Shown piece after piece: positions 46,403-63,540 of a stretch of 64,000 bases of DNA (position 1 is the first letter of the stretch; every line of letters begins with the position of its first letter). Made by a program: the position numbers and the translations under genes. The notes beneath the pieces are model-generated. The model was not told the origin of the DNA. It searched no databases and worked only from the letters and a program-made list of their open reading frames with translations. Source of the DNA: Naegleria gruberi (Eukaryota). The stretch lies in assembly GCA_000004985.1 (NCBI GenBank), contig GG738890.1. One strand, 5' to 3'.

Positions 46403-49400
46403 ATGATGATGGCAAATGTCACGCCCAATACAAAACAATCAAGAAAAAATAAAATGGCCAACAATCGATCATCACCCTCTTCCGTTGTCATTTGGTGGGT
46501 GGTAGCAATAGCCATCTCTTCCGTTCTCTTCTTTGTTCCACTCATTTACTTGATTGCCACAATTCCCCATCTCATTGCAATTTGTAATTCACTCTTTGCC
46601 TTTGTAGTACTCTCACTTGTTGGTTTCTTCTTGATTTTGGCAGTGTGGGTTGGAATAATGATCAGAGATATGAATAAGAATGTTGTCAACAAGACTACAA
46701 AGAGGAGTGTATTGGAGGAGGAGGTGGATGAAGGTCGCTTGAATGATTATCAGAGAACCTTTGGAAATCAGGCTAGATTGTTGAATGGTGGTGGCGATGA
46801 TGAAATGTCGGGAGAGGAATATGATGATGATGATGAAGAATCATTGATTCAACAACAACAGGGAAATAACGAATTAGTAATGGAGGAATCGAATAGAGCT
46901 GCCAATTTGATTGAAGAAACTCGTAGAAATCAACAATACAAACAAACTACAGAGTATATTGTACAGTTTTTGAGAGTTGGCTCCTTTTTGATTTTCATTG
47001 TACTTTTAATTGGATTGTTACTGTTTTCTATTTGGATTGGAACAACAAAGAGTAGAGCAGAAGGTCTTCTTCGTGGATCCATGTCAATTAATGAGATTGT
47101 GACAAGAGCCAATGCTGGAGATGTTTCCTATAAGGAAGCTCAACCATACATTCAGAAATTTTTGGAACAATTAGGTCAGTCTACTGTCAAGGTTGAAAGA
47201 GATTCAAATGATGTAATTCACATCACTGCCCCAAATGAGTATACACTCTATTTCACTCAAGGTTTTGTTCATGCTCAAGAGAGATTGTGGCAAATTGATA
47301 CTTTGAAGAGTACAATCAAGGGAGAATTATCCAGCTTGTTTGGATATGGACTCATCTTCTCTGACCAGTACTATCTTACCATGGGATTATATGAAGCTGC
47401 TCAGAGAGATTGGGCTAATTTGGGTGATGATTTAAAACAAAGATTGGAAGCCTATGCTTACGGATTGAATACCTATGCCAAATTATTGCCAGGTCTTCCT
47501 GTTGAATTTCAACTTTTGAGTTACAAGCCAGGTGTTTTCACTGGTGTTGATATTTTGGCTCATCACAAATATATTAGTTTAACTCTTGCTGGTAATATTC
47601 ACTCTGAAATTGCTAGATATGGTCTCGAATTGGTTGGTTTATCATATGATAGAATCAAGACTATTCTTCCAAATTCTTATCCAAATGGATTCCCAATTAT
47701 TTCATCACCAAATGCTAATATTACTTATCAACCAAGTTCAACCACATCATCCACAACTAGTAGAAGTAGTAGCAGTTCAACTAGAAAGAAATCACTCTCT
47801 GCATCCATTTCTGTTTTGGCTGGACAAATTATCTCAGGTCTGGAAGATTTGGTAGATATCTTTTCATCTTCATCCACTATAAGACAGAGATTTGCCCTCT
47901 CCATGTTCGATCCACAAAATCACTTCTCCTCTCCAGAACAAAAGAATGCCTTCCTTCAAGCTAGTAATAATTGGGTCATTGGTGGTGCCTACACATCAAC
48001 TGGAAAACCATTACATGCCAATGATATTCACCTTCATTTCCAAGGTCCAAATATTTTCCTCTTGATGCACCTCAAGATTGAAAGCTCAACAAAACCAATG
48101 CAAGTTATTGGAGCTTCAATTGCTGGATTACCATGTGTTATTGTTGGCAGAAATGGAAATGGAATTTCATGGTCAATTACCAATGCTGGAGCAGATACAA
48201 TGGATACTTATTTAATTGATGAAAATGCAGATGGTCTCACCTATAACTATGGTGGCGCCAAAAACAGTTATACTATCAAGACAGTTACACTTTCAGTTAA
48301 GGGAGGCTCCAAGGCCATGTTTAATGTTACAACTGCAGGAAGTTTTGGACCTCTGGTTGATAAATTGTACAATATTCCAAATCTCCCAAAGCAAAAGCGT
48401 CTAGCCCTCAGATATTTGGATGTTTTATTGAAAACTGATAAGAGCACTCAAACATTCTTTGATTTGCCTTATACAACCAACTATGATCAATTTATTGAAG
48501 CTTTTAAAAATCTCAATGCTCCAGTTTTGAATATTCTCTATGCCGACAATAATAATAATATTGGATATATTATGGCTGGTAAACTTCCAAAAAGAGGTTC
48601 GACCACTACTGACAATTTAGGATTGAGACCTGTCAAGACCTATGATAGCACTGAAAAGTCTTACACATGGGAAACTGATGATAGTGGAAATTACAAGACC
48701 AATGCTTTTGATGATTTACCAGATATTGCTCCAGAGGTAGCTACTTCACGCTTTATATTCTCTGCCAACAACAAGGCTGAAGCTAATCCTGTCACTACCA
48801 TTACTAATGACTATAGCTTGTTGTATGGAAGAAGTATGAGAATTCAATCCTTGGTTTCCTCCCTCATTGCCAGAAAGAATATCACACTCTCTGATATGGC
48901 AAAAGTTCAAAGTGATAGTGTCAGTGTGCTCTACTTGATGAATAGAAATATTTTTGCTCGTATGAAACCTTTCACAGATACTTATAAGGAAGGTGTCAGA
49001 AATGATTTGGCCAACAATTGGGATGGTGATATGAAGCCAGATTCCAAGTATGCAACCATTTTCGAGTACTGGATGACCTATCTCACTAATTTGGCTGCCA
49101 ATGAAACCAAACAAGATAATGACTTACCATTCTCCAAAAAGAAGAGTTTCCCTCTTTCATTGAGATATGCCCTCTCTGCTATTCAAACAGAACTCTCCAC
49201 TGGAGTTACCGATCAAAATTGTAAGTCATTCTCCAGTGACAAGACATGTCTCGGATACGCCAAGGATCAATTGGAAGCTGTTCTTGTTGCTTTAAGATCT
49301 AAATTCTCATTCGTTCCACTTTACAGTTCCTACAGAATTCACCAAACTAAATTTACTCATCCAATCTTTGGCGCCTATGGTTTAACAGGATGTTTGGGAA

Positions 49401-49672
49401 CAAGAATATCGAGAAAGAGTGGTGGTACTGACACTATCAATGAAGGTGGTCCATCTGATGCCAACTTGTCAAACAATTTCGGTCCAACCTATCGTCAAAT
49501 TATTGATCATGCCAATCCAGAAAGCTCAGTATTTATAATGCCAATGGGTCAATCAGGAAATATCTTTTCTGACACGTACGATAATTACTTACAAGCATGG
49601 GAAGATGGTAAATACATTCCAATGAAAACTAAGGATTATATTGTTAGGGATGTTTTGATAATTGCCAAATAA
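46403..49672 (+). CDS. Penicillin amidase (penicillin/cephalosporin/AHL acylase, Ntn-hydrolase S45) family protein with N-terminal TM anchors
   Basis: Alpha-subunit block FTQGFVHAQERLWQIDTLKS...GELSSLFG. Beta-subunit N-terminal nucleophile context SNNWVIGGAYTSTGKPLHANDIHL. N-terminal hydrophobic helices VVIWWVVAIAISSVLFFVPLIYLIATIPHLIAICNSLFAFVVLSLVGFFLILAVWVGIMI. Confidence 0.8.
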   Translation: MMMANVTPNTKQSRKNKMANNRSSPSSVVIWWVVAIAISSVLFFVPLIYLIATIPHLIAICNSLFAFVVLSLVGFFLILAVWVGIMIRDMNKNVVNKTTKRSVLEEEVDEGRLNDYQRTFGNQARLLNGGGDDEMSGEEYDDDDEESLIQQQQGNNELVMEESNRAANLIEETRRNQQYKQTTEYIVQFLRVGSFLIFIVLLIGLLLFSIWIGTTKSRAEGLLRGSMSINEIVTRANAGDVSYKEAQPYIQKFLEQLGQSTVKVERDSNDVIHITAPNEYTLYFTQGFVHAQERLWQIDTLKSTIKGELSSLFGYGLIFSDQYYLTMGLYEAAQRDWANLGDDLKQRLEAYAYGLNTYAKLLPGLPVEFQLLSYKPGVFTGVDILAHHKYISLTLAGNIHSEIARYGLELVGLSYDRIKTILPNSYPNGFPIISSPNANITYQPSSTTSSTTSRSSSSSTRKKSLSASISVLAGQIISGLEDLVDIFSSSSTIRQRFALSMFDPQNHFSSPEQKNAFLQASNNWVIGGAYTSTGKPLHANDIHLHFQGPNIFLLMHLKIESSTKPMQVIGASIAGLPCVIVGRNGNGISWSITNAGADTMDTYLIDENADGLTYNYGGAKNSYTIKTVTLSVKGGSKAMFNVTTAGSFGPLVDKLYNIPNLPKQKRLALRYLDVLLKTDKSTQTFFDLPYTTNYDQFIEAFKNLNAPVLNILYADNNNNIGYIMAGKLPKRGSTTTDNLGLRPVKTYDSTEKSYTWETDDSGNYKTNAFDDLPDIAPEVATSRFIFSANNKAEANPVTTITNDYSLLYGRSMRIQSLVSSLIARKNITLSDMAKVQSDSVSVLYLMNRNIFARMKPFTDTYKEGVRNDLANNWDGDMKPDSKYATIFEYWMTYLTNLAANETKQDNDLPFSKKKSFPLSLRYALSAIQTELSTGVTDQNCKSFSSDKTCLGYAKDQLEAVLVALRSKFSFVPLYSSYRIHQTKFTHPIFGAYGLTGCLGTRISRKSGGTDTINEGGPSDANLSNNFGPTYRQIIDHANPESSVFIMPMGQSGNIFSDTYDNYLQAWEDGKYIPMKTKDYIVRDVLIIAK

Positions 49673-50127
49673 ATTGTTGAATTTATTACAAAATATATTG
49701 AACATTTTAAATGAACTTTCATTAGCTCTCACATTAAACAAACTTAAATCGCTTTAACCAAATGAATAGTTTATCGGCGCTAAGGAAGAATTTACATCAC
49801 TCAACTACAATTTTTTTCAATTTTGCGAGAGATTTAATTTCATCTCCAATCAAAACAAAGATTAGAGACAATTCCATCACGCTCAATCAAAACTAAAACG
49901 TACCAACTGGGCCATTTATGAAATGTTGGATTCTTTCAAAGATCCAGTGGAGAGTGCCAGTACATGCAGTTTGTAATTAATTTTCTCTAAAAAAACTATT
50001 CGAAACCCTCTCTGTTTCTTCTCTCGAATAGTCTAATTGAATAAATTGCAATACTGTCAACAAAAAATAACCTGATATCATCAACATTATCAATTAAGGA
50101 TTTTCAATAAACTCATAACTCAAAAAA

Positions 50128-50343
50128 ATGGAAACTCAACAAATGACTCCCGAGGTTTACCTCTCACTCTCAAGAAGACGATGCTCCACCATACATGCAC
50201 TTCCACAAGATCCACAGCTAGGAGAAAGTATGTTCAATTCCTTCTCATTTCCACCTAGAAAACCAGGTCATGATGTGGTGGATGATGTTTTGGACGAAAT
50301 GGAAGAGATGAATCTCCATGAAGAAGAATCGACGGATGAATAA
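50128..50343 (+). CDS. Small acidic ORF (71 aa) with a basic RRRCST motif; hypothetical
   Basis: ATG start in a plausible context (aaaaaATGG). It is isolated in a 1.2-kb intergenic region. The C-terminus is strongly acidic (DDVLDEMEEMNLHEEESTDE). Confidence 0.25.
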   Translation: METQQMTPEVYLSLSRRRCSTIHALPQDPQLGESMFNSFSFPPRKPGHDVVDDVLDEMEEMNLHEEESTDE

Positions 50344-50918
50344 TATCAATTGTTACATATGATGATTCCTGTAGTATATATCAAAGTCTATCTATCCTCG
50401 AGAATTTTGTAAAATAACATTGTAAGAAAAAAGAAAAATCGCAAAGACCAGATTGTAATAAAAAAGCGCAATTAGATCTAGAAGTCAACAGTTGTCTCCA
50501 ATTATTCCCTCTCATTAACAAAACCAATATTCCTTCATGGCAACTCCCAATGCTCCTGTCTTGTGAACTCTAATCACAATATGAGCGAATTTCCAGTGCT
50601 GTTGAAATAAGGTGGCACAATTTCCTTACTGTCCAACAACACACACCCACACCATATGTTTGGTTGAAGAGTATTGAAAGTTGTTTATGTTCAAGTCTTC
50701 AATTGTCTGATGTGATTACAGTAAATATTATAATCGGGTAATAGTGGAAGATCCAAATCATGATTTGTTTTCAAACGATCAATATCATCAATAATTGATA
50801 TCAAACAATACTACCAACAAATATATTATTATTATTTAATTGATATTATTTAATTATTTACAAAATTTCCACACAAATTTCAAAAATTCTAAATTTCCAT
50901 CTCACTGATTTAAAAAAT

Positions 50919-51464
50919 TCAAATATGATGTGTTTCATTAATTTCAAAAAACTTTAAAACTCTCTTATAAATTTCACCACCACTTCCTTCCAATCTATTT
51001 TCCAAAACTAATTGCATTGTAACTTGATCAAGGAAATGCTGGAGTTCTGTTTTTCTCTTTTCTATTGTTTCTGGATTTGTGTTTCCAAAGAAGATTTTAC
51101 CTGGAAAATCATATTTAACATCAGTTGCACCGATTGTTTGCATTTGTGAACTGTCAGATGTCTCGGAATGTTGATGGGTTATTGATGACAGTTGTTTGTA
51201 TAAATCTCTTAATTCTGAATATCGTTTGGCTACAGAAAGTGTAAAAACGATGGCTTGGGATTTTGTTCTTGTTAGTTTACTGGGTGATTGTGAATCGACA
51301 GGTAAAATTGATTTGACAGTAAATGTCACATCATAAATGACAGTGGCATGTTTGTCTTTTGTTGTTACTACGTTATATCCGTCAATTGTTAGTGAAAAGG
51401 AAAGTTGATTGGTCTTGTAGGGTGGTAATTTGTTTGATGGTATTTCGTCTTGAGATTCGTACAT
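50919..51464 (-). CDS. PX (phox-homology) domain protein
   Basis: VAKRYSELRDLYKQL ... DFPGKIFFGNTNPETIEKRKTELQHFLDQV matches the PX consensus (RYS-F..L, proline-rich loop, RR..L..YL). Confidence 0.65.
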   Translation of the reverse strand: MYESQDEIPSNKLPPYKTNQLSFSLTIDGYNVVTTKDKHATVIYDVTFTVKSILPVDSQSPSKLTRTKSQAIVFTLSVAKRYSELRDLYKQLSSITHQHSETSDSSQMQTIGATDVKYDFPGKIFFGNTNPETIEKRKTELQHFLDQVTMQLVLENRLEGSGGEIYKRVLKFFEINETHHI

Positions 51465-51928
51465 TTTTTTTAAGTTTCTAATAAAAATTAAAATTGATGA
51501 TTTTTAAATTTCTAGTTGGAACTTGATGATGAAATGTTGCAGAACTTTGGAGAGATATTTTTTTAATTTTCCAATTCATCATACTTTTATGGAAAGTTTA
51601 GTTTATCAGTTTAGTTTTGACATTCAATAAATTATTATATTAAATATATATTATAATATTGTTATTCAATATTATTGAAGGGAATGTGGATTACCATTCA
51701 TGTTCTATTGAGATAATTTCCATTAGAAAGTTCAATAACAGGATTCGAATAAAAAAATATTCATGAAGAAAGAATAGCTTTTTCGATAAACTACAATCCT
51801 TCATTTCTAAAATTATTTGAAGAGAGAAAAACTTCATCCAATATCAATTACCTTTTGTAATACAGTGAAGAGATATTCGAAACTACGTAAGTTCAATTAA
51901 AAAAAAAGTTGTAGTATCGAACATTAGA

Positions 51929-54900
51929 ATGAAAGTAAAGATCTCATTTCTCTTGCTCAATATTTTATTCCTTCTCTTCCTGTCAATATTTCTTGACACT
52001 TCATTGAGTGCTGACACCTTAACTTTTGTTTCGAAAGGAAATGCGCCTCAAACAGGTTCTTCTTTATATTTCCATAAAGCTAGTAACAAGTTGTATGCGT
52101 TTGGAGGTACCACTGATAGTAACAATGTTGTAAATACTATTAAATCTGTCAGTGTCACGTCAACTGTGTTACAGAGCTTGTCAAATCTTAATTCTAACTT
52201 CTCAACGACTAGTTTGTCCATTAGTACTTCTTTATCATCTGTAGGATCAGTATCAACAGCGTTTTCTTATGGAGCTTTTCATATTTTGACAATTGACAAT
52301 CAAGAATATGCATATATATTTGGAGGATCAAATAATCGTATTCAAAGAGCAAATACTTCCTCATTAACATCATTTACAACACTTTATAGTACATTACCTG
52401 AAGCCTATTTTGGAGGAGCTACCTTTAGAACAGAAAGTTTCGTCTATTTGATTAGTGGAAGTGGAACGAAGGCAATGTATAGAGCTAGTGTCAGTAATCC
52501 AACAAATTGGACAAATATTGGTAATTTTCCAGTTACTATTGTGATGCCAGGAGTTTTTACTTACAAAAGAAAAGTTTATTTGGTTGGAGGTTCTTCTTCC
52601 TATTTAGGAGGAACTAATTATAATACTATTTACTTTGCAACTTTTGATGCTCTTGACAAGATGACAAGCAGTTCGAGTGGAGTTTGGTCCCTATCCACTT
52701 CCAAGTTACCAGTAGCAGCAGGTAGCTCAACATTCTTCATGACTGATACATATGCTTACATGACATCTGGCACTCTTGGTACAAAACTTTACCGAGCTCC
52801 TCTTTCTTCATTAACAACCTGGACAGATAGTACACTGACCACCCCTTACTCAGCCTCTCTCGTCACTTCCTTCACAAGTGGTAATACTCTTCTCTACTAT
52901 GCTGGTTTGAAATATTCGACAATTTTATTTTGGACTTCAATTTCATCACTTGATAATTTTTACACTTCACAAGTTGAAGAGTTTAAGGGATGTTTTAGTG
53001 TGCCAGTTTCGGATTTGACTGTTTGTAATGGAAGAGGAGGCTGCGTTGCAAGGGATGTATGTCAATGTAGTGATGGGTTTTATGGAGATGCTTGTCAGTT
53101 TGAAAGAGTTTGTTATGGAGTGACAGCTGGCAGTTCGAATGTTTGTTCTGGAAATGGAGTTTGTATGGCTGATAATACGTGTGTTTGCAATAGTGAAAGT
53201 ACTGGTTCTACATGCTCTGATTTTACTTGTTTTGGTATTTCTCCAACTGATTCGAATATTTGCTCTGGAAATGGAAATTGTCTTTCACATGACAAGTGCC
53301 AATGTAAAACTGGATATTCTGGACAAAATTGTGATTCTTTCACTTGTTATGGACTCCCACCAAGTGATCCAAAGGTTTGCTCTTCCTTAGGTCCATGCAT
53401 TGGTTACAACAATTGTTCATGTCCAAATTCTCTGGCCGAAGATTGTTCTGCATTTGGATGTAATGGAATAAGCGCCAATAATCCGAGTGTTTGCTCTGGA
53501 AATGGGATTTGCACTTCTTTGGATGTTTGTGTTTGTAATGAGACAGTTAGTGGTCAATTTTGTAATGTGTTTTCATGTTTTAATGTTTCGAATGATGATT
53601 CGAATGTTTGTTCGGGAAAGGGAAGTTGTTTGAAATCAGATATGTGCTCTTGTCAGAATGGATACAGTGGTAGCCAGTGTGAATTATTTTCATGTGGTGG
53701 AATTAGTCGTTTGGACAGTTTAGTTTGTTCTGGAAATGGAAGTTGCATTTCTCCTGATTTGTGTAAATGTAATGAGGGATGGAGTGGTGATAATTGTGAA
53801 TTTCCATCATGTTTTGGATATTTATCAACTGATGGATTAGCTTGTAGTGGTTATGGAACTTGTGTTTCGAATAATAGCTGTCTCTGTGCGCAAGGATTTC
53901 GTGGTCAATCATGTGAAATTTACACTTGTAATGGCAAATCAAATCAAGAAATTCAATGCTCTGGAAATGGTCAATGTTCTCCTCAAACTCTCACTTGTAA
54001 TTGTAGAGAGAATTACTTTGGACAAGATTGCGAATATTTCACTTGTTTTGGTGTGCTAAATAATCAAACAAATGTTTGCTCTGGACATGGCATTTGTTTG
54101 GGTATTAATAATTGCTCTTGTGAGAGTGGTTATTTTGGATTTTCATGTGAATTGCATTCATGTGATGGTATTCCACAATTGTCTGACATTTACAAGAATA
54201 TGACAAATAGTCCTTTCTCAAATTGGGAAAACCAAATTCCTTGTAATGGTAGAGGAGCATGTACTGCACTCGATACTTGCCAATGTGATTCTGGTTATTT
54301 GGGAAAATATTGTTCAGATTTCAAATGTTTTGACAAGCTCGTTAATGACACAAATGTTTGTTCAGGGAATGGAACATGTACATCTCCAAATAAGTGTCAA
54401 TGCAAAGAAGGATTCTATGGAAATGAATGTGAAAGTTTTGATTGTTTTGGAATTGAAAAATCATTCAAAACTGTTTGTTCTTCAGCTGGCATTTGTATTT
54501 CTCCTGAAAATTGTTTTTGTAAGGCAGGATTTTATGGAGCTGATTGTTCCAAGTATGAATGTTATGGTCTATTATTTAATAATTCGAATGTTTGTTCAGG
54601 AAATGGCAAGTGTTTGGAGCCAGAAAGTTGTCAATGCAAGGAAGGATTCTTGGGTAATAATTGTGAACTTTATTATTGTTATGGAAAGGTCAATAACGAA
54701 ACGAGTGTTTGTGGAGGAAATGGAAAATGTTCTTCATTGAATACATGTGAATGTAGGGATGGATATATTGGGGATGAGTGCTCTGTTTACAAGTGTTTCG
54801 AAACATTTAGTAACGATTCCACAGTATGCTCCTCTTTTGGTAAATGTTCTGGAATTGATACATGTATTTGCAATGCAGAACATTTTGGAGAAAAGTGTGA

Positions 54901-57900
54901 ATTAACTTGGTGTCATGGAAAGGCTTCAAATGATAGCTCAGTATGTAACGGTAAAGGAATTTGTAACAGCTTTGACACATGCATTTGTGATCAAGATTAT
55001 TTTGGTGAAACTTGTCAAGATTTCAAATGTGGAACCCTGTTAAAGAATGATTCTATGGTTTGTTCTGGAAGTGGATCATGTTCAAGCCCAAATAATTGCA
55101 CATGTTTGGATGGTTATTTTGGAACTCATTGTGAATTATTTGAATGTCAAGGAAAGCTCCTCAATGATTCTAATGTTTGCTCTGGAAATGGAACATGTCA
55201 ATCTCCAAATAAGTGTCAATGCAAAGAAGGATTCCATGGGAATGAATGTGAAAGTTTTGATTGTTTTGGAATTGAAAAATCATTCAAAACTGTTTGTTCT
55301 TCAGCTGGCTCGTGTATTTCTCCTGAACATTGCGTTTGTAGGGCAGGATTTTATGGAGCTGATTGTTCCAAGTATGAATGTTATGGTCTATTATTCAATA
55401 ATTCGAATGTTTGTTCAGGAAATGGCAAGTGCTTGGAGCCAGAAAGTTGTCAATGCAAAGAAGGATACTACGGAAATGTATGTGACAGTTTTGATTGTTT
55501 TGGAATTGAAAAATCATCAGAAACTGTTTGCAACTCAGTTGGATCTTGCATTTCTCCTAACTTGTGCAAATGCAAGGATGATTTCTATGGAGCTACCTGT
55601 GAAAAGTTTAAATGCTTTGGTGTTAATATGACCGATGAAAAAGCATGTAATCAGAAAGGTACATGTATTGGAAAAGACTTGTGCACTTGTGAGAATGGAT
55701 ATTTCGGTAGTAACTGTTCCCAATTTGGTTGTTTTGGAATTGTTAGTAGCAATGCTAGTGTTTGTTCGAATGGAAATGGCAAATGCATTGGTAGAGATGA
55801 GTGTGAATGTTTAACAACCAAAAATGGTTATTACACTGGAAATGAATGTCAATACTTTGTGTCTAACATTACACAAGTTGCATTTGTAATAGATATTGAT
55901 GAAAATAGAAAGGAAATATTATCAGAACCTGGTGAAGATAGATTTGTGAACTTAAAAGTAACAATGAGCTCGTTGTCAAATGTTACCTTCTTGGTATGGT
56001 GTAATAATTGTACAAATTTTACAAATACTGGAATGGATAATGCTCTTGTTTTTTATACACCCCAAATGGTTATTGATGTTTCTAATTTAGCTGTAGGAGG
56101 TACATTTGAATTTTCAGTCATTAGTCAGAACATGGCAGAGAAAACCGAATTCTCCAATATTAGAAAGTTTATCTTGGCAATAGTGGTTCGCCCTATTGAA
56201 CCTTATAAACCTACTGACGTACGAATTGAAAGTTTAGAGGTATCCAACTTTCCAAAGGCAATTATCTACTCATCCTCTCTCAAGTTTGATTTCATTCTTT
56301 CCAAATTGACTTTGAACAATTTAGAAGGCAGCAAATTGTTAATGAGTGATTGTATTTCACTCACTGACGAATCTTGTCAATTAAGATATAATTATAATGT
56401 ATCTGTTTTTGATACATTTAAAAAAGAAGAAATTATCTATGGTTTGAAGGTTAAAGGACATGTATTCTGCCCCGTAGCCAATTATACTAATACTCTAAAG
56501 CTTTCACCTGCTATTAATGTTCAGTTCGCTCTTCCAACAAGTAACTTTTCCGCTTCTTCCCTCAAAATAGTTTTTAGTTTTGAAATTGGAAGTGAAAATT
56601 ATTCAATCCAAACATATTCCCAATCAGAATTAGTTTCTGTGAGTGCTGAAGGTATAAAACCTCCAAATAATTATCAAGTACAAGTTTCTCCTCAAACATC
56701 AGTAGCCATAGTAGAGAATGTCACAATAGCTTCACCTGTTTGGAATTGTGACAATGAAAATTTCAATCCTATTCGCTACGCATTTGGTTTTTACAATCCT
56801 ACTGTCGATAGTAAGAAAGCATGGATAAAGTTGACAGAATATTCCACAAATCCAACAGCTAGTTTCCCACTTCCTTATCTATCCAAGCAATTAAGCACTT
56901 CCATGCAAGTAGAAGTTGTAATATTTGTGATGGACTCTCAAGGGAATAGTCAATATCTGAAAATAGGGCAAGCAAAAGTTTCTCCATTTCAAGGAATTTT
57001 GCCTTCCTCCATGAGTGATCTAGAGAGAAGTGTTCTAGCCTACGATCAATTTACTCTATCCCATATGGCTGACAGTTCTGTGGTTGTGGATATCGTTAAG
57101 AGTATTTCTGTAAATCCTGCAGATCCTGGATCTTCATTGAAAGTTCTGGACTCGCTGACTTCTGACAGTAGCTTGTTGAGTAATCCAGATATTGCAAGTC
57201 AAGTGGCTGATACAGTTACCTCCTTCTTGTCAAGTGCCCTTGAACTTTATCAAAACGAGCTTAAAACAAATGGTTTTGTCTCGTCTAAAATGTCAGAAGA
57301 AGCCAAATCATCAGCTGTTTCAGTAATTTCCAATTTGTTTACATCTGTTGACACAAATTCAACAACATCTGCAAGTAATGATATTGCCAAAAAGACAGAA
57401 CAAATGATTCTCTCCTTCTCCAAGTTAGTTCTAGCCTCAGAAGTTCCAAAAGTGTTAGAAACAAGTGACTCTGGATCTCTCGCATTACCAGTGTTACAGT
57501 ACAATACTCCATCCATGAATGTTACATTCTCCTCATTCATGCTTAGTGGTGGTGCTTCAAAGAGGTCTTCTAACAATCAAGGTACTTATCAATTAACAAG
57601 TGGAGAATCAAATATTCAAATAGACTTGAATGAAATAGTTGGAAAATACGGAGGCTATTCGAAACCACTTGGATTGTCCCTTGTCACTTTTGAAAAGAAT
57701 ACCAAGGTTGATAACTTTTCCCTTTCCAATCCAATGTCCTCTATAATCAACGAGTTGAAATATTACCAAAACTCTGAAATTGTGAAGTTGAATGATTTAG
57801 ATAGTCCAATATCTTTGCAATTTGGAATTAACTCTGCTTCTCTTTTACTCCTTTCTAAAGGGGCAAGCATTACCTCTCAGGAAAGTTTCAATCAAACTCA

Positions 57901-59833
57901 AAATGTAACAATAATACAGGAACCCTATGTTAGTTGCATGTATTGGGATGAAATTGAGAATGGATGGAGAGATTACGGGTGTACACTTCTTTCCTTTGAT
58001 AATGTAACTGGAAAGGCAGAATGTGCCTGTACTCACACCACTAAATTCTCAACCTTTGTGCAATACAAGAAGAGAAATGTTACCTCCACTTTAACACCTG
58101 CTCAAGTTGTTGCTGCTCTCAGTGAAACAACATTTGAAATTATCCTGAATAGCTTTGAAATAGTTGCAGGAGTAGTCTTTGGTTTTTTCTCATTCATTTT
58201 GTTGGTGCTCTTGATAGTGTACAGAAAGCGCCAGCCAATTCAGAGCAGAATGTTGACACCGTATATTGGTATGGTAGCATTACTTGTTGAGAATGTTTTA
58301 ATTTCCATACTACAGAAAGGTCTCCTTCTCCAAGATACGAGTAATCCATCGAATAGCAGTGATAGTTTAATCTTGGGAGCCAATTTGACAGGAAATATTT
58401 GCATGATTATTGTAAATACCTTGAATATTACTGCCATCTTTGCCTATTTAGTTCAAGTTATTCGATTCCAATTCATGAAGTCACTCTATGAAAAGATTAA
58501 GAGAACAAGAACAGAACCATCAAGGAAAATAATCCAATTTTTGAAATTCATTACTTCCAAACTTGTATTCTCAGTTTCGGTGTTCATTTGTGCGTGTGTC
58601 AACTTGTTGTTATGGACAGTGTGGGTAGCTATATTGAGATCTAACACTATTGATTCATCCACTTATACTAAAGGAAGTGCAATTTGTTATGCCATACTAT
58701 TAATTGGATGTAGCATCTTGATTTCCATTACAATTATTGTTGATATTTTCACAACTGTTACACGAGATGACGATCAACAAATTACTGAAAGAGCCAGATC
58801 CAAAATCTTCTCACCAGAGGAAATGAAAAACATCAAAGAAGGCATTGAAGAAGTGCAAAGTACCTCAGCAGCCTCTCCAATAAGTATTACTGATACACCA
58901 TCCTATTCATCCTTTGAATTGAGAAAATTATTTAGAAAATTCCTCCACCGAGATGAACCACTGTACTTTAGAATGGAAATGCTCTTCTTCTTGACATGCT
59001 TTGTTTTCTGTATCATTCAATTAGTAACTGGCTTGATTATTGATCAAATCAAATCATCTGAATCAACAGTAACTCCAACAATACGTGCCCTCTCAGTCAT
59101 TCAATTCATATTTGAAGTACTCTACTCTGCAACCTACTTGCTTGTATTTGGTGGTTTCTCTCTACTTGTTCTCATTAAACAAAAGAAGGCAACAAAAAAG
59201 CCAATCAATGAAGCTGATTCACTATTTGACGATTCAGAAGTGATGGAATTATTCCAAGATGTACAAGGATTTGAAATCTTTGAAGAGTTTGCTCAAAAGG
59301 AATTCTCTGTTGAAAACCTCTATCTCTATGCTGAATTGTTATCCAACAAACAAGTGATTGCTGGTAATGCTCTCCGAAAACTACCAAACTTTTTGGAAGT
59401 ACTCTCTGATAAGTTTATCCAAAATGGATCCACCTATGAAGTGAATATTCCCTCCTCTACAAAGACTGAATTCAACCAATTGAGAAAATCCCTAAAGGAG
59501 GTGTTAATCATGATGAATACTCAAAGTGGAGGGCAACAACAAGCCCATGTTGTGGATATTATTCTTGAGGATGGAGATGAGCAAGATGACAATAATCGTG
59601 TTGAAGATAATGTAATTGGCAAGAATCTAGATGAGGAAAATTCTCTGAAGGCAAAAGTGTTAAGCTTCTTTGATGCTCTCTCACGACAAGTTGCCATTAA
59701 TTTGAGCGATACATTCAGTCGTTTTGCCAATACCAAGAGTTACAAATCCTACAGGAAGAACCGAGATTTCATTCAAAATATGGTCAAAAAGGCCAATGTT
59801 GAAGCCTTCCATACAAGTCCCAATGTTGTCTAG
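51929..59833 (+). CDS. Giant adhesion-GPCR-like receptor: signal peptide, N-terminal beta-propeller-like region, about 30 tenascin-type EGF-like repeats, GPS motif, 7TM, C-terminal RGS domain
   Basis: Repeated CxGxGxCxxxxxCxCxxGxxGxxC units across about 52980..55860. GPS-like CMYWDEIENGWRDYGCTLLSFDNVTGKAECACTHTTKFSTF. Seven hydrophobic helices at 58140..59180. C-terminal RGS consensus FEEFAQKEFSVENLYLYAELL...YEVNIP. Confidence 0.8.
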   Translation: MKVKISFLLLNILFLLFLSIFLDTSLSADTLTFVSKGNAPQTGSSLYFHKASNKLYAFGGTTDSNNVVNTIKSVSVTSTVLQSLSNLNSNFSTTSLSISTSLSSVGSVSTAFSYGAFHILTIDNQEYAYIFGGSNNRIQRANTSSLTSFTTLYSTLPEAYFGGATFRTESFVYLISGSGTKAMYRASVSNPTNWTNIGNFPVTIVMPGVFTYKRKVYLVGGSSSYLGGTNYNTIYFATFDALDKMTSSSSGVWSLSTSKLPVAAGSSTFFMTDTYAYMTSGTLGTKLYRAPLSSLTTWTDSTLTTPYSASLVTSFTSGNTLLYYAGLKYSTILFWTSISSLDNFYTSQVEEFKGCFSVPVSDLTVCNGRGGCVARDVCQCSDGFYGDACQFERVCYGVTAGSSNVCSGNGVCMADNTCVCNSESTGSTCSDFTCFGISPTDSNICSGNGNCLSHDKCQCKTGYSGQNCDSFTCYGLPPSDPKVCSSLGPCIGYNNCSCPNSLAEDCSAFGCNGISANNPSVCSGNGICTSLDVCVCNETVSGQFCNVFSCFNVSNDDSNVCSGKGSCLKSDMCSCQNGYSGSQCELFSCGGISRLDSLVCSGNGSCISPDLCKCNEGWSGDNCEFPSCFGYLSTDGLACSGYGTCVSNNSCLCAQGFRGQSCEIYTCNGKSNQEIQCSGNGQCSPQTLTCNCRENYFGQDCEYFTCFGVLNNQTNVCSGHGICLGINNCSCESGYFGFSCELHSCDGIPQLSDIYKNMTNSPFSNWENQIPCNGRGACTALDTCQCDSGYLGKYCSDFKCFDKLVNDTNVCSGNGTCTSPNKCQCKEGFYGNECESFDCFGIEKSFKTVCSSAGICISPENCFCKAGFYGADCSKYECYGLLFNNSNVCSGNGKCLEPESCQCKEGFLGNNCELYYCYGKVNNETSVCGGNGKCSSLNTCECRDGYIGDECSVYKCFETFSNDSTVCSSFGKCSGIDTCICNAEHFGEKCELTWCHGKASNDSSVCNGKGICNSFDTCICDQDYFGETCQDFKCGTLLKNDSMVCSGSGSCSSPNNCTCLDGYFGTHCELFECQGKLLNDSNVCSGNGTCQSPNKCQCKEGFHGNECESFDCFGIEKSFKTVCSSAGSCISPEHCVCRAGFYGADCSKYECYGLLFNNSNVCSGNGKCLEPESCQCKEGYYGNVCDSFDCFGIEKSSETVCNSVGSCISPNLCKCKDDFYGATCEKFKCFGVNMTDEKACNQKGTCIGKDLCTCENGYFGSNCSQFGCFGIVSSNASVCSNGNGKCIGRDECECLTTKNGYYTGNECQYFVSNITQVAFVIDIDENRKEILSEPGEDRFVNLKVTMSSLSNVTFLVWCNNCTNFTNTGMDNALVFYTPQMVIDVSNLAVGGTFEFSVISQNMAEKTEFSNIRKFILAIVVRPIEPYKPTDVRIESLEVSNFPKAIIYSSSLKFDFILSKLTLNNLEGSKLLMSDCISLTDESCQLRYNYNVSVFDTFKKEEIIYGLKVKGHVFCPVANYTNTLKLSPAINVQFALPTSNFSASSLKIVFSFEIGSENYSIQTYSQSELVSVSAEGIKPPNNYQVQVSPQTSVAIVENVTIASPVWNCDNENFNPIRYAFGFYNPTVDSKKAWIKLTEYSTNPTASFPLPYLSKQLSTSMQVEVVIFVMDSQGNSQYLKIGQAKVSPFQGILPSSMSDLERSVLAYDQFTLSHMADSSVVVDIVKSISVNPADPGSSLKVLDSLTSDSSLLSNPDIASQVADTVTSFLSSALELYQNELKTNGFVSSKMSEEAKSSAVSVISNLFTSVDTNSTTSASNDIAKKTEQMILSFSKLVLASEVPKVLETSDSGSLALPVLQYNTPSMNVTFSSFMLSGGASKRSSNNQGTYQLTSGESNIQIDLNEIVGKYGGYSKPLGLSLVTFEKNTKVDNFSLSNPMSSIINELKYYQNSEIVKLNDLDSPISLQFGINSASLLLLSKGASITSQESFNQTQNVTIIQEPYVSCMYWDEIENGWRDYGCTLLSFDNVTGKAECACTHTTKFSTFVQYKKRNVTSTLTPAQVVAALSETTFEIILNSFEIVAGVVFGFFSFILLVLLIVYRKRQPIQSRMLTPYIGMVALLVENVLISILQKGLLLQDTSNPSNSSDSLILGANLTGNICMIIVNTLNITAIFAYLVQVIRFQFMKSLYEKIKRTRTEPSRKIIQFLKFITSKLVFSVSVFICACVNLLLWTVWVAILRSNTIDSSTYTKGSAICYAILLIGCSILISITIIVDIFTTVTRDDDQQITERARSKIFSPEEMKNIKEGIEEVQSTSAASPISITDTPSYSSFELRKLFRKFLHRDEPLYFRMEMLFFLTCFVFCIIQLVTGLIIDQIKSSESTVTPTIRALSVIQFIFEVLYSATYLLVFGGFSLLVLIKQKKATKKPINEADSLFDDSEVMELFQDVQGFEIFEEFAQKEFSVENLYLYAELLSNKQVIAGNALRKLPNFLEVLSDKFIQNGSTYEVNIPSSTKTEFNQLRKSLKEVLIMMNTQSGGQQQAHVVDIILEDGDEQDDNNRVEDNVIGKNLDEENSLKAKVLSFFDALSRQVAINLSDTFSRFANTKSYKSYRKNRDFIQNMVKKANVEAFHTSPNVV

Positions 59834-59882
59834 GTTATTGAAGATGATAGGATAGTTTGAACTTTATCGTGTAACGATGATA

Positions 59883-62830
59883 NNNNNNNNNNNNNNNNNN
59901 NNNNNNNNNNNNNNNNNNNNNNNNNNNNNNNNNNNNNNNNNNNNNNNNNNNNNNNNNNNNNNNNNNNNNNNNNNNNNNNNNNNNNNNNNNNNNNNNNNNN
60001 NNNNNNNNNNNNNNNNNNNNNNNNNNNNNNNNNNNNNNNNNNNNNNNNNNNNNNNNNNNNNNNNNNNNNNNNNNNNNNNNNNNNNNNNNNNNNNNNNNNN
60101 NNNNNNNNNNNNNNNNNNNNNNNNNNNNNNNNNNNNNNNNNNNNNNNNNNNNNNNNNNNNNNNNNNNNNNNNNNNNNNNNNNNNNNNNNNNNNNNNNNNN
60201 NNNNNNNNNNNNNNNNNNNNNNNNNNNNNNNNNNNNNNNNNNNNNNNNNNNNNNNNNNNNNNNNNNNNNNNNNNNNNNNNNNNNNNNNNNNNNNNNNNNN
60301 NNNNNNNNNNNNNNNNNNNNNNNNNNNNNNNNNNNNNNNNNNNNNNNNNNNNNNNNNNNNNNNNNNNNNNNNNNNNNNNNNNNNNNNNNNNNNNNNNNNN
60401 NNNNNNNNNNNNNNNNNNNNNNNNNNNNNNNNNNNNNNNNNNNNNNNNNNNNNNNNNNNNNNNNNNNNNNNNNNNNNNNNNNNNNNNNNNNNNNNNNNNN
60501 NNNNNNNNNNNNNNNNNNNNNNNNNNNNNNNNNNNNNNNNNNNNNNNNNNNNNNNNNNNNNNNNNNNNNNNNNNNNNNNNNNNNNNNNNNNNNNNNNNNN
60601 NNNNNNNNNNNNNNNNNNNNNNNNNNNNNNNNNNNNNNNNNNNNNNNNNNNNNNNNNNNNNNNNNNNNNNNNNNNNNNNNNNNNNNNNNNNNNNNNNNNN
60701 NNNNNNNNNNNNNNNNNNNNNNNNNNNNNNNNNNNNNNNNNNNNNNNNNNNNNNNNNNNNNNNNNNNNNNNNNNNNNNNNNNNNNNNNNNNNNNNNNNNN
60801 NNNNNNNNNNNNNNNNNNNNNNNNNNNNNNNNNNNNNNNNNNNNNNNNNNNNNNNNNNNNNNNNNNNNNNNNNNNNNNNNNNNNNNNNNNNNNNNNNNNN
60901 NNNNNNNNNNNNNNNNNNNNNNNNNNNNNNNNNNNNNNNNNNNNNNNNNNNNNNNNNNNNNNNNNNNNNNNNNNNNNNNNNNNNNNNNNNNNNNNNNNNN
61001 NNNNNNNNNNNNNNNNNNNNNNNNNNNNNNNNNNNNNNNNNNNNNNNNNNNNNNNNNNNNNNNNNNNNNNNNNNNNNNNNNNNNNNNNNNNNNNNNNNNN
61101 NNNNNNNNNNNNNNNNNNNNNNNNNNNNNNNNNNNNNNNNNNNNNNNNNNNNNNNNNNNNNNNNNNNNNNNNNNNNNNNNNNNNNNNNNNNNNNNNNNNN
61201 NNNNNNNNNNNNNNNNNNNNNNNNNNNNNNNNNNNNNNNNNNNNNNNNNNNNNNNNNNNNNNNNNNNNNNNNNNNNNNNNNNNNNNNNNNNNNNNNNNNN
61301 NNNNNNNNNNNNNNNNNNNNNNNNNNNNNNNNNNNNNNNNNNNNNNNNNNNNNNNNNNNNNNNNNNNNNNNNNNNNNNNNNNNNNNNNNNNNNNNNNNNN
61401 NNNNNNNNNNNNNNNNNNNNNNNNNNNNNNNNNNNNNNNNNNNNNNNNNNNNNNNNNNNNNNNNNNNNNNNNNNNNNNNNNNNNNNNNNNNNNNNNNNNN
61501 NNNNNNNNNNNNNNNNNNNNNNNNNNNNNNNNNNNNNNNNNNNNNNNNNNNNNNNNNNNNNNNNNNNNNNNNNNNNNNNNNNNNNNNNNNNNNNNNNNNN
61601 NNNNNNNNNNNNNNNNNNNNNNNNNNNNNNNNNNNNNNNNNNNNNNNNNNNNNNNNNNNNNNNNNNNNNNNNNNNNNNNNNNNNNNNNNNNNNNNNNNNN
61701 NNNNNNNNNNNNNNNNNNNNNNNNNNNNNNNNNNNNNNNNNNNNNNNNNNNNNNNNNNNNNNNNNNNNNNNNNNNNNNNNNNNNNNNNNNNNNNNNNNNN
61801 NNNNNNNNNNNNNNNNNNNNNNNNNNNNNNNNNNNNNNNNNNNNNNNNNNNNNNNNNNNNNNNNNNNNNNNNNNNNNNNNNNNNNNNNNNNNNNNNNNNN
61901 NNNNNNNNNNNNNNNNNNNNNNNNNNNNNNNNNNNNNNNNNNNNNNNNNNNNNNNNNNNNNNNNNNNNNNNNNNNNNNNNNNNNNNNNNNNNNNNNNNNN
62001 NNNNNNNNNNNNNNNNNNNNNNNNNNNNNNNNNNNNNNNNNNNNNNNNNNNNNNNNNNNNNNNNNNNNNNNNNNNNNNNNNNNNNNNNNNNNNNNNNNNN
62101 NNNNNNNNNNNNNNNNNNNNNNNNNNNNNNNNNNNNNNNNNNNNNNNNNNNNNNNNNNNNNNNNNNNNNNNNNNNNNNNNNNNNNNNNNNNNNNNNNNNN
62201 NNNNNNNNNNNNNNNNNNNNNNNNNNNNNNNNNNNNNNNNNNNNNNNNNNNNNNNNNNNNNNNNNNNNNNNNNNNNNNNNNNNNNNNNNNNNNNNNNNNN
62301 NNNNNNNNNNNNNNNNNNNNNNNNNNNNNNNNNNNNNNNNNNNNNNNNNNNNNNNNNNNNNNNNNNNNNNNNNNNNNNNNNNNNNNNNNNNNNNNNNNNN
62401 NNNNNNNNNNNNNNNNNNNNNNNNNNNNNNNNNNNNNNNNNNNNNNNNNNNNNNNNNNNNNNNNNNNNNNNNNNNNNNNNNNNNNNNNNNNNNNNNNNNN
62501 NNNNNNNNNNNNNNNNNNNNNNNNNNNNNNNNNNNNNNNNNNNNNNNNNNNNNNNNNNNNNNNNNNNNNNNNNNNNNNNNNNNNNNNNNNNNNNNNNNNN
62601 NNNNNNNNNNNNNNNNNNNNNNNNNNNNNNNNNNNNNNNNNNNNNNNNNNNNNNNNNNNNNNNNNNNNNNNNNNNNNNNNNNNNNNNNNNNNNNNNNNNN
62701 NNNNNNNNNNNNNNNNNNNNNNNNNNNNNNNNNNNNNNNNNNNNNNNNNNNNNNNNNNNNNNNNNNNNNNNNNNNNNNNNNNNNNNNNNNNNNNNNNNNN
62801 NNNNNNNNNNNNNNNNNNNNNNNNNNNNNN
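59883..62830. other. Assembly gap (run of N, 2948 bp)
   Basis: Contiguous N characters. The ORFs translated across it (the X-runs) are artefacts. Confidence 0.99.
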
Positions 62831-63540
62831 TCGGAGTGGTTTTACATCATGAAACCACCAAACTTTCACATCATCATCTCAACATGATCTATATAGTAGT
62901 AATAATAGTAATTTTTATTGGTGGATTATCATCATGAAATTGGAATTTATTTTTCATGATGGAAAATCATAAGTTGGTGTTCCATCATCGGATCATTCAC
63001 CAACATCATCATTATTGTTTTCCATTAATAATAATGTATAATTTCGAGTCTTGTAGCATAATTTGTGAAAATAATGGATATCTATTATTGGATTGTGATT
63101 ATAAATTTGGAATTTAATTTTGACTTTCACAAATTCAAGTTGGTAAGCCATCATCGGAGCAACTACCAACCATCATCATTGTTATTTATCATCATTATAA
63201 TAGTAATATTTGTGGAAATAAATCTGATAATAGTAATATTTTAATGAAATTCAATGTTTTCACTAAAATCATCATCACTGCCAGATTTATATGATAATTT
63301 GGAAAACTTTCAATCTAGTATTGTTCAGCATGGTCAATTCCATCAGGTAAAATCACTTCCGAACATTTCCCTATTGGTTATCATGATGATAGGTACATGT
63401 ATATTTTCAACATGTGCCTGGACCATATCCCAACATGTACTTCAACTTGGAAAATGTCTTTCGGGTTATTCATGGTCACCAATCATGATTCATGCCAAAA
63501 GTACACAGCCAATCATCTTGAAACATTAATAAACATTTAG
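62831..63540. repeat. Subtelomeric (telomere-associated) repeat containing an internally duplicated ~45-bp motif
   Basis: The unit aagttggt..ccatcatcgga.c...accaac..tcatcatt occurs twice (about 62965 and about 63140). It is homologous to 21361..21870 and directly abuts the terminal simple repeat. Confidence 0.6.

Follow-up and report, generated by a model that had tools for sequence, protein, structure and literature searches.

EGF arrays occur in metazoan adhesion GPCRs such as those of the EMR/CD97 and CELSR types, where adhesion modules in series lead up to a GPS motif (GPCR proteolysis site) just ahead of the first transmembrane helix. The same extracellular layout is seen in the product of NAEGRDRAFT_71475, a gene of Naegleria gruberi. 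The Naegleria protein differs from these GPCRs in its C-terminal RGS domain and in a membrane region that has no Pfam 7tm match (E up to 1). AtRGS1, a plant 7TM-RGS protein of Arabidopsis (summarised in PMC9283941), likewise joins seven transmembrane segments to a C-terminal RGS domain but, unlike NAEGRDRAFT_71475, possesses no large ectodomain, EGF array or GPS motif. Naegleria itself provides the nearest match in domain order: the '7TM RGS' proteins Nf 7TM RGS2-4 of Naegleria fowleri, which carry EGF repeats and GPS motifs, have been described, and GTPase-accelerating biochemistry on G-alpha has been performed for Nf 7TM RGS1-4 (PMC9283941). The order of domains in Nf 7TM RGS2-4, from EGF-like repeats through GPS and 7TM to a C-terminal RGS, is the one found here; NAEGRDRAFT_71475 is an uncharacterised paralog distinguished by its Kelch-like N-terminus and its 24 EGF modules.

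The modules themselves recall teneurin/tenascin-type EGF arrays, with tightly packed six-cysteine units, 4-residue linkers and strong Pfam matches (EGF_TEN, EGF_Teneurin, EGF_2), but the host proteins are unrelated and the likeness is confined to module type. Repeat units of other sorts are known to be homogenised within a gene, as documented for the concerted evolution of spidroin repeats (PMC3933166) and in a survey of repeat evolution (PMC5120217). What we describe below shares with these cases the presence of units that are more alike, via duplication or conversion, than the age of the array predicts. It differs in that one 295-nt tract has been homogenised among 24 modules while the remainder is old and divergent (54% identity), and we can therefore understand it as a single event in NAEGRDRAFT_71475 rather than as ongoing concerted evolution.

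The receptor and its relatives

NAEGRDRAFT_71475 lies at 51929..59833 on the plus strand of the window, the whole 64,000-nt stretch of DNA that was analysed, as an uninterrupted listed open reading frame of 2634 codons, without intron. Its 2634-aa product is 100% identical over its length to a database protein (P0001; XP_002673492.1, UniProt D2VR63) that is annotated as 'predicted protein' only, and a literature search with the locus tag and accessions of the gene found no paper. A PX gene is its neighbour, and a 2948-N gap in the scaffolded draft assembly opens 50 nt past its stop codon.

The reading frame opens with a predicted signal peptide (51929..52009, plus strand, as are all features given below), where a hydropathy scan places a hydrophobic segment at aa 3-21. 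A Kelch-like region follows at 52034..52918, probably a beta-propeller to judge from Pfam Kelch_6 and Kelch-repeat matches that are weak and fall below cut-offs; it is common to the relatives P0019, P0002 and P0004. The EGF-like array occupies 52991..55861 and consists of 24 contiguous modules, M1 to M24, each with six cysteines and mostly 39 aa (117 nt) long, as seen in the module table and in the Pfam matches to EGF_2 (1.9e-85, 17 stretches), EGF_TEN (9.5e-82) and EGF_Teneurin (5.6e-61). Further downstream, a Pfam GPS match (57932..58051, aa 2002-2041; 1e-05, 26.4 bits for a cut-off of 22.5) includes the motif CACTHTTKF and directly precedes the first transmembrane segment, which begins at about aa 2078. 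The seven hydrophobic segments (58160..59176, aa 2078-2416) come from a Kyte-Doolittle hydropathy scan only; no Pfam 7tm family, 7tm_2 included, matched aa 2032-2634 at E up to 1 or the whole protein at E up to 0.01. The C-terminus carries an RGS domain (59246..59491, aa 2440-2521), detected by Pfam in the C-terminal fragment at 25.7 bits (cut-off 23.9); a profile made of 12 family C-termini returned 34 matches in the PDB, all of them RGS proteins, the best at 3e-11.

These features place the gene product among the adhesion-like "7TM RGS" receptors known from N. fowleri. A homology search returned 195 matches at E up to 1e-3, and all 23 matches looked up by name were proteins of N. gruberi, N. 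fowleri or Naegleria lovaniensis, or Logan/JGI metagenome contigs. The N. fowleri and N. lovaniensis members are homologous to NAEGRDRAFT_71475, with E-values down to 1e-156; outside the EGF array, identity with the N. fowleri proteins is only 35-39%. A relative in N. lovaniensis (L001) has about four EGF cores and no synteny with the window, and is therefore unusable as an outgroup at the level of modules. Metagenome scans with the protein as query and with a 35-nt exact DNA pattern taken from the copied tract found no relatives; nor did an ortholog with a comparable array turn up.

A tract of 295 nt repeated seven modules downstream

Within the array, the best ungapped segment shared by two places is 295 nt long and identical at 278/295 positions (94.2%). 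Copy 1 (54353..54647) runs from M12 after its first cysteine, through the whole of M13, to CKEG in M14; copy 2 (55172..55466) covers the corresponding part of M19 to M21. BLASTN extends the match to 332 nt at 91.3% (54335-54666 against 55154-55485). The sequence-only reading of this locus had seen near-identical nucleotide copies here, for which it would have accepted nothing well below 85%, and the alignment bears it out, down to each of the six amino acid substitutions that it listed. It had placed the copies about 830 bp apart; measured from start to start, the distance is exactly 819 nt, that is, 7 x 117 nt or seven modules. It was also right to see a genuine intragenic copy of EGF sequence in a giant receptor; the cassette of three modules must be cut to about 2.5, as the tract begins between Cys1 and Cys2 of M12 and stops just past Cys5 of M14. 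With a head of 27 nt and a tail of 29 nt, the 295 nt amount to 351 nt, or three modules.

Both ends of the tract thus lie inside modules, and they coincide with the two most conserved inter-module nucleotide motifs: AATGTTTGYTCNGGNAATGG (NVCSGNG) at the 5' end and TGTCAATGCAARGAAGGAT (CQCKEG, a CxCKEG motif) at the 3' end, motifs common to 12-13 modules in a repeat search (families D3 and D4). The copies had been called tandem; they are in fact held apart by 524 nt (54648..55171: the tail of M14, M15 to M18 and the head of M19), which identity matrix and flank tests show to be old module sequence unrelated to what follows copy 2. Tandem Repeats Finder reported no array at the copied tract.

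The contrast between the tract and its surroundings is sharp. Over 276 pairwise comparisons of the 24 modules, mean nucleotide identity is 54% (SD 8%), while M12/M19, M13/M20 and M14/M21 reach 85%, 94% and 87%, the next best pair standing at 72%; the best other 295-nt window, at all offsets in the array, has 206/295 matches (70%). Chance is excluded as the source of the identity: with p = 0.54, 278 or more matches out of 295 have a binomial probability of about 1e-53. Synonymous sites tell the same story: dS is 0.16 within the tract, rises to 0.66 (5' flank) and 1.8 (3' flank) outside it, and is saturated between all other modules. The flanks are at background, 4-22% of background pairs being equally or more similar for the 5' flank and 18-64% for the 3' flank, and so are the modules that follow, M15/M22 and M16/M23 (47-48% identity, saturated dS). 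The copied tract is much younger than the remainder of the array. The enrichment in GC that GC-biased conversion might leave behind is absent from it (GC3 is 0.16 and 0.20 for the copies and 0.21 for the array), a point against conversion.

The 17 nucleotide differences between the copies fall in 14 codons, eight of them synonymous and six with replacements (T/Q, Y/H, I/S, N/H, F/V, K/R), and neither copy has lost the reading frame or a cysteine. A dN/dS of about 0.23 for the tract shows purifying selection on both copies. When related modules are used as outgroups, five changes are polarised to the upstream and six to the downstream copy, a symmetric split that carries no signal of direction. 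Seven of the 17 differences cluster at 54491-54522 (p = 0.036, marginal), between blocks that are 98% identical, and four of the replacements (I/S, N/H, F/V, K/R) fall within these 32 nt, in module B's Cys3-Cys5 loops; mosaics of this sort commonly accompany conversion that is patchy or repeated.

An older duplication, this one truly tandem, was found in the same gene by BLASTN self-comparison. Its two-module unit repeats at 55161..55621 in the arrangement [A'B'][C'B''] (55161-55387 against 55395-55621, offset 234 nt, 75.5% identity), as is also apparent in M19/M21 (72% identical) and M20/M22 (71%), and its homology crosses the 3' end of copy 2 without interruption.

Probable copying between modules and the competing explanations

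A sharply bounded block of high identity, in register and including synonymous sites, 94.2% identical inside and at background outside, is what gene conversion is recognised by, and tract ends lying sharply within modules, at their most conserved motifs, fit it as well. It is thus likely that both copies owe their likeness to homology-directed copying, non-reciprocal and between EGF modules in register, that is, to intragenic ectopic gene conversion or SDSA-type repair. The repair mechanism is here what we infer. A break or gap would have arisen in the M12-M14 region and been repaired using as template the M19-M21 region, seven modules downstream, with about 295 nt being copied between end points placed in the conserved motifs NVCSGNG (5') and CQCKEG (3'). 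The reading frame and the cysteine register would have been kept throughout, and substitutions would afterwards have accrued in both copies at similar rates under purifying selection, leaving two nearly identical stretches of 2.5 modules in the extracellular stalk of what is predicted to be an adhesion-type 7TM-RGS receptor. Resident modules would in this way have been overwritten rather than added. Copying probably went from downstream to upstream, with copy 2 as donor and copy 1 as recipient, because the 234-nt tandem homology continues unbroken past the 3' end of copy 2 and M14 is a chimera, with a C'-like head, and a tail of its own that is unrelated, as is the next module, M15.

Unequal crossing-over had been proposed for the repeat. 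A single such exchange would make the whole 819-nt unit similar, and it is excluded by flanking modules that stand at background: since M15-M18 have no counterpart after copy 2, it cannot yield the observed pattern, which conversion can. A seven-module tandem duplication was rejected on the same ground (M15-M18 against M22-M24 are at background identity). An array periodic by two modules was rejected as the cause of the offset, because a shift of seven modules does not fit a two-module phase. So was import of the cassette from a paralog, no relative having an ABC-like cassette above 52% amino acid identity and the 64-kb window holding no further copy. The same final arrangement would come out of a double unequal crossover, in which seven modules were duplicated and seven were then deleted.

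A less likely course, which keeps some appeal, is that the cassette was added as new modules and raised their number, through two successive unequal crossovers or through a repair in which out-of-register re-annealing inserted up to two extra modules. Module number clearly varies in the family, the nearest relatives with the same N-terminal domain having some 4-6 EGF cores where this gene has 24 modules; the paralog NAEGRDRAFT_57455 (P0005) contains a truly adjacent three-module duplication (133 aa, 93% identity, offset 117 aa), the older two-module duplication at 55161-55621 is adjacent too and in the same gene, and the arithmetic of three modules (27 + 295 + 29 = 351 nt) permits it. The copies of the young tract, however, are not adjacent; with M15-M18 between them old and unique, and no remnant of a duplicated M15-M18 block, at least two events would be required. 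The sequence-only reading had further spoken of recent and ongoing expansion, and this part finds no support: dS is 0.16, dN/dS is about 0.23, the changes that can be polarised are divided evenly between the copies (5 and 6), and there is no sign of module gain in the event.

Selection for the same protein sequence, acting independently on the two places, would account for the purifying dN/dS seen in both copies, and yet this explanation is next to impossible: synonymous sites are near-identical in the tract when they are saturated among all other modules and diverged in the flanks, so that the similarity lies at the level of DNA and does not come from convergence of proteins. Out-of-frame translations are near-identical as well, the wrong-frame ORFs 54246..54740 and 55047..55631 both existing and matching across the tract, as had been noticed. 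Very improbable, too, is an assembly artefact, in which a second copy would have been created, or two alleles stitched in series, in a scaffolded draft whose 2948-N gap begins 50 nt after the stop codon. Stitching of alleles predicts a contiguous duplicated block, where the copies observed are split by 524 nt of unique sequence; the 17 differences leave frame and cysteines intact in both copies, and paralogs, like N. fowleri strains assembled independently, have similar internal repeats. A Sanger read exceeds the 295-nt tract in length. The short length of the tract, in an assembly that is Sanger-based (PMC9928731, Table 1), together with the differing sites and the open frame, also makes weak the earlier concern that the repeat might be a hotspot of assembly collapse.

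Internal repeats in the family and what they may mean

Internal repeats, defined as a 60-aa window that matches another site of its own array at 75% identity or more, occur in nine, NAEGRDRAFT_71475 among them, of the 24 distinct relatives that have four EGF cores or more, and they comprise both dispersed and truly tandem cases. The present finding is real but ordinary, and looks like repair-driven copying between repeat units of a sort common in this Naegleria gene family. Taken alone its significance is limited, as a further example of homologous repair reshaping arrays of small disulfide-rich modules. A broader reading, which we hold to be rather improbable, would have the EGF ectodomains of all Naegleria 7TM-RGS adhesion-like receptors actively remodelled by copying of cassettes, through conversion as well as tandem duplication, the replacements in module B then reflecting diversifying selection on a ligand-binding surface; if this were true, the amoeba would vary its environmental or prey-sensing receptors through intragenic exchange of cassettes.

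For annotators and assemblers, the 295-nt internal repeat of NAEGRDRAFT_71475 calls for caution. It is also worth emphasizing that the geometry of a repeat can by itself, without outgroup data, tell conversion-like copying from simple tandem duplication. Lastly, a 'predicted protein' that is now recognisable as a 7TM-RGS adhesion-like receptor, with internal copies in nine of the 24 distinct relatives that have four or more EGF cores, could guide work on the sensing of surfaces or prey by Naegleria.

A receptor gene and its duplicated cassette

The gene carrying the repeat is an uninterrupted open reading frame (51929-59833, + strand, 2634 aa). An exhaustive HMMER search with residues 1435-2634 as the query found a 100% identical protein of 2634 aa, Naegleria gruberi NAEGRDRAFT_71475 (XP_002673492.1, D2VR63), labelled 'predicted protein' at its source. 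A hydrophobic signal-like segment at the N-terminus and a weak Kelch-like region are combined with 24 EGF modules (Pfam EGF_2, 1.9e-85; EGF_TEN, 9.5e-82), about 690 residues that match no Pfam family, a GPS motif (26.4 bits, cut-off 22.5), seven hydrophobic segments (aa 2078-2416) and an RGS domain (25.7 bits, cut-off 23.9). A profile built from 12 C-termini of the family retrieved only RGS proteins from the PDB (best 3e-11). This is the '7TM RGS' architecture of N. fowleri. EGF repeats, lectin domains and GPS motifs occur in several of the 28 genes of this kind described there, whose RGS domains act on Naegleria G-alpha subunits to speed up GTP hydrolysis (PMC9283941). The ectodomain and the GPS motif are like those of metazoan adhesion GPCRs, but the membrane region matches no Pfam 7tm family, and for this reason we did not assign the receptor to that class.

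The EGF array (52991-55861, + strand) consists of 24 contiguous six-cysteine modules, M1 to M24 from 5' to 3', mostly of 39 aa or 117 nt, with M12 to M23 in perfect register. When the gene was slid against itself, the best-scoring segment, at an offset of 819 nt, or exactly seven modules, paired 54353-54647 (the upstream copy) with 55172-55466 (the downstream copy), 278 of 295 nucleotides being identical (94.2%); BLASTN lengthened the match to 332 nt at 91.3%. The top alternative self-match of this length, at any offset, reaches 206 of 295. Mean nucleotide identity over the 276 module pairs is 54% (SD 8%), the best pairs being M12/M19, M13/M20 and M14/M21 and all others at or below 72%; a binomial estimate for 278 of 295 at p = 0.54 is about 1e-53. 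Within the tract, dS is 0.164 and dN 0.037 (Nei-Gojobori), as against a dS of 0.66 in the 5' flank, 1.8 in the 3' flank and saturation in other module pairs. From this identity, the low module background and the contrast in dS, it follows that the similarity reflects a copy made at the DNA level, not convergence between proteins, and that an EGF cassette was indeed copied within one gene, at the positions given, as the sequence-only reading had it. The 17 differences fall in 14 codons, eight of them synonymous and six replacements (T/Q, Y/H, I/S, N/H, F/V, K/R), exactly those which that reading had listed, and the wrong-frame ORFs that it had remarked upon are present and near-identical across the tract. 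Its description of the event as recent holds with respect to the rest of the array only: a dS of 0.16 and a dN/dS near 0.23 show that purifying selection has maintained the two copies for quite some time.

The differences are unevenly spread, seven of the 17, and four of the six replacements, lying in 32 nt (54491-54522 against 55310-55341) that encode the Cys3-Cys5 loops of the second module of the cassette, while the blocks on either side are about 98% identical. This clustering is a marginal signal (permutation p = 0.036), which may have arisen by conversion in patches or in repeated rounds, or else by local, diversifying selection on these loops.

How the young tract was made

The two copies had been taken for a tandem duplication produced by unequal crossing-over, with expansion of the array. 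They are in fact separated by 524 nt (from the upstream end at 54647 to the downstream start at 55172), taken up by the end of M14, M15 to M18 and the beginning of M19. The four whole modules are old and unique, none reaching more than 63% identity with another module of 117 nt (M11, a longer module requiring gapped alignment, scores up to 69% against them). Tandem Repeats Finder, run over 48000-62000, reported no repeat. A single unequal crossover leaves two adjacent copies of all the sequence between its breakpoints. Here the copies are not adjacent, and M15/M22 and M16/M23 are at background, with 47-48% identity and saturated dS. Against a position-specific background built from all other module pairs, the 5' flank is equalled or exceeded in similarity by 4-22% of pairs, the 3' flank by 18% and the module that follows by 64%, all within background. 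The whole 819-nt unit is not similar, which rules out unequal crossing-over in a single step; nor can expansion be demonstrated.

The self-comparison also uncovered an older event, in which 55161-55387 matches 55395-55621 (75.5% identity over 229 nt, offset 234 nt). Naming M12, M13 and M14 of the upstream copy A, B and C, and M19 to M22 A', B', C' and B'', we can describe 55161-55621 as a true adjacent two-module tandem duplication, [A'B'][C'B''], that is M19 M20 followed by M21 M22; the identities of M19/M21 (72%) and M20/M22 (71%) agree with this. The older homology crosses the 3' end of the downstream copy without interruption, so that M21 is the native, full module there. In M14, by comparison, only the head, as far as CKEG, is C'-like; the tail (FLGNNCELYY) is unrelated to that of M21, as is the neighbour, M15, to M22, which makes M14 a chimera. 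It is simplest to suppose that copying ran from the downstream site, as template, to the upstream one, as recipient. Polarised with related modules as outgroups, the 17 differences are divided into five upstream, six downstream and six unresolved; both copies have diverged equally since the event, and polarisation is silent on its direction.

The tract itself is a homogenised block of about 300 nt, in register and sharp-edged, beginning at the AATGTTTGYTCNGGNAATGG motif (NVCSGNG) and ending at the TGTCAATGCAARGAAGGAT motif (CQCKEG), the best-conserved micro-homologies of the array, common to 12-13 modules (repeat families D3 and D4). Such a block, with unrelated sequence between donor and recipient, matches the output of ectopic gene conversion or of synthesis-dependent strand annealing on a misaligned repeat, and we regard one or the other as the probable origin of the young tract: the M19-M21 region would have been copied in register onto the M12-M14 region. 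The event was strictly intragenic, since no relative has an ABC-like cassette above 52% amino acid identity and no further copy was found within the 64-kb window. There is no GC enrichment in the tract. A double unequal crossover, duplicating seven modules and then deleting seven, would leave the same end product. Re-annealing of the copied strand out of register could, for its part, have added up to two modules, and it is in keeping with this that head (27 nt), tract (295 nt) and tail (29 nt) together make 351 nt, or three modules. As to an assembly artefact, a scaffold gap of 2948 N (59883-62830) opens 50 nt past the receptor stop codon, so that the assembly is a draft. Sanger reads, however, are longer than a 295-nt tract. 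The copies differ at 17 sites, retain the frame and every cysteine, and are separated by unique sequence, in a Sanger-based assembly of strain NEG-M (40.9 Mb, 35% GC; PMC9928731, Table 1), all of which makes an artefact very improbable. The two 'ORFs' of about 1000 aa (59864..62869 and 59877..62852) are spurious, being translations of N.

Fluid arrays in the receptor family

The HMMER search gave 195 matches at E up to 1e-3. Among these, the 23 looked up by name were without exception proteins of N. gruberi, N. fowleri or N. lovaniensis, or else metagenome contigs from Logan or JGI. Two metagenome scans found no relative, and the literature held no paper naming the locus. Four or more EGF cores are present in 27 of the proteins retrieved; as three of these cluster with one N. 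fowleri protein, they amount to 24 distinct proteins. Internal repeats, scored when a stretch of 60 aa is matched at 75% identity or more elsewhere in its own array, occur in 12 of the 27 (nine distinct, the present gene counted). The N. gruberi paralog NAEGRDRAFT_57455 has, at aa 346-595, an adjacent tandem of 133 aa at 93% identity, offset by 117 aa or three modules, the structure first supposed for the present gene. Dispersed repeats are found in N. gruberi NAEGRDRAFT_73134 (82 aa, 95% identity, copies 51 aa apart) and in N. fowleri FDP41_005437 (54 aa, 89% identity, five-module offset), where four gene models from the 90%-identity cluster agree in offset and in their 30 EGF cores. EGF cores are much scarcer in relatives that share the N-terminal domain, with six in NAEGRDRAFT_80440 and about four in C9374_006556. 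Over long periods the arrays of this family have thus been free to change in module number and content, and the repeat described here is unexceptional among them: what is new is one more case of a well-known type of event, in a family whose architecture was already described.

C9374_006556 (L001, 10001-17274) is the closest N. lovaniensis relative with a Kelch-like N-terminus; an N/S/T-rich stretch of about 550 aa, probably heavily glycosylated, stands where most of the EGF array lies in N. gruberi, and its gene neighbourhood shows no synteny with the window.

Neighbouring genes

Neighbours in the window are typically eukaryotic, with an NF1-like RasGAP and BEACH, PX and Myb proteins; the first is an intronless gene (36748-45249, - strand) for a neurofibromin-like protein of 2832 aa with RasGAP and CRAL_TRIO_2 domains. 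A second, minimal 7TM-RGS gene (22952-24493, - strand, 513 aa) lies about 28 kb upstream of the receptor; its product has some six or seven hydrophobic segments (aa 42-318), no large ectodomain and a Pfam RGS match at aa 380-484 (25.8 bits, cut-off 23.9). Between them and the receptor, 46403-49672 (+ strand) encodes a 1089-aa protein with a very strong match to penicillin amidase (Pfam PF01804, 1.4e-150); as this family is mostly bacterial, the gene was possibly acquired horizontally by the amoeba genome.
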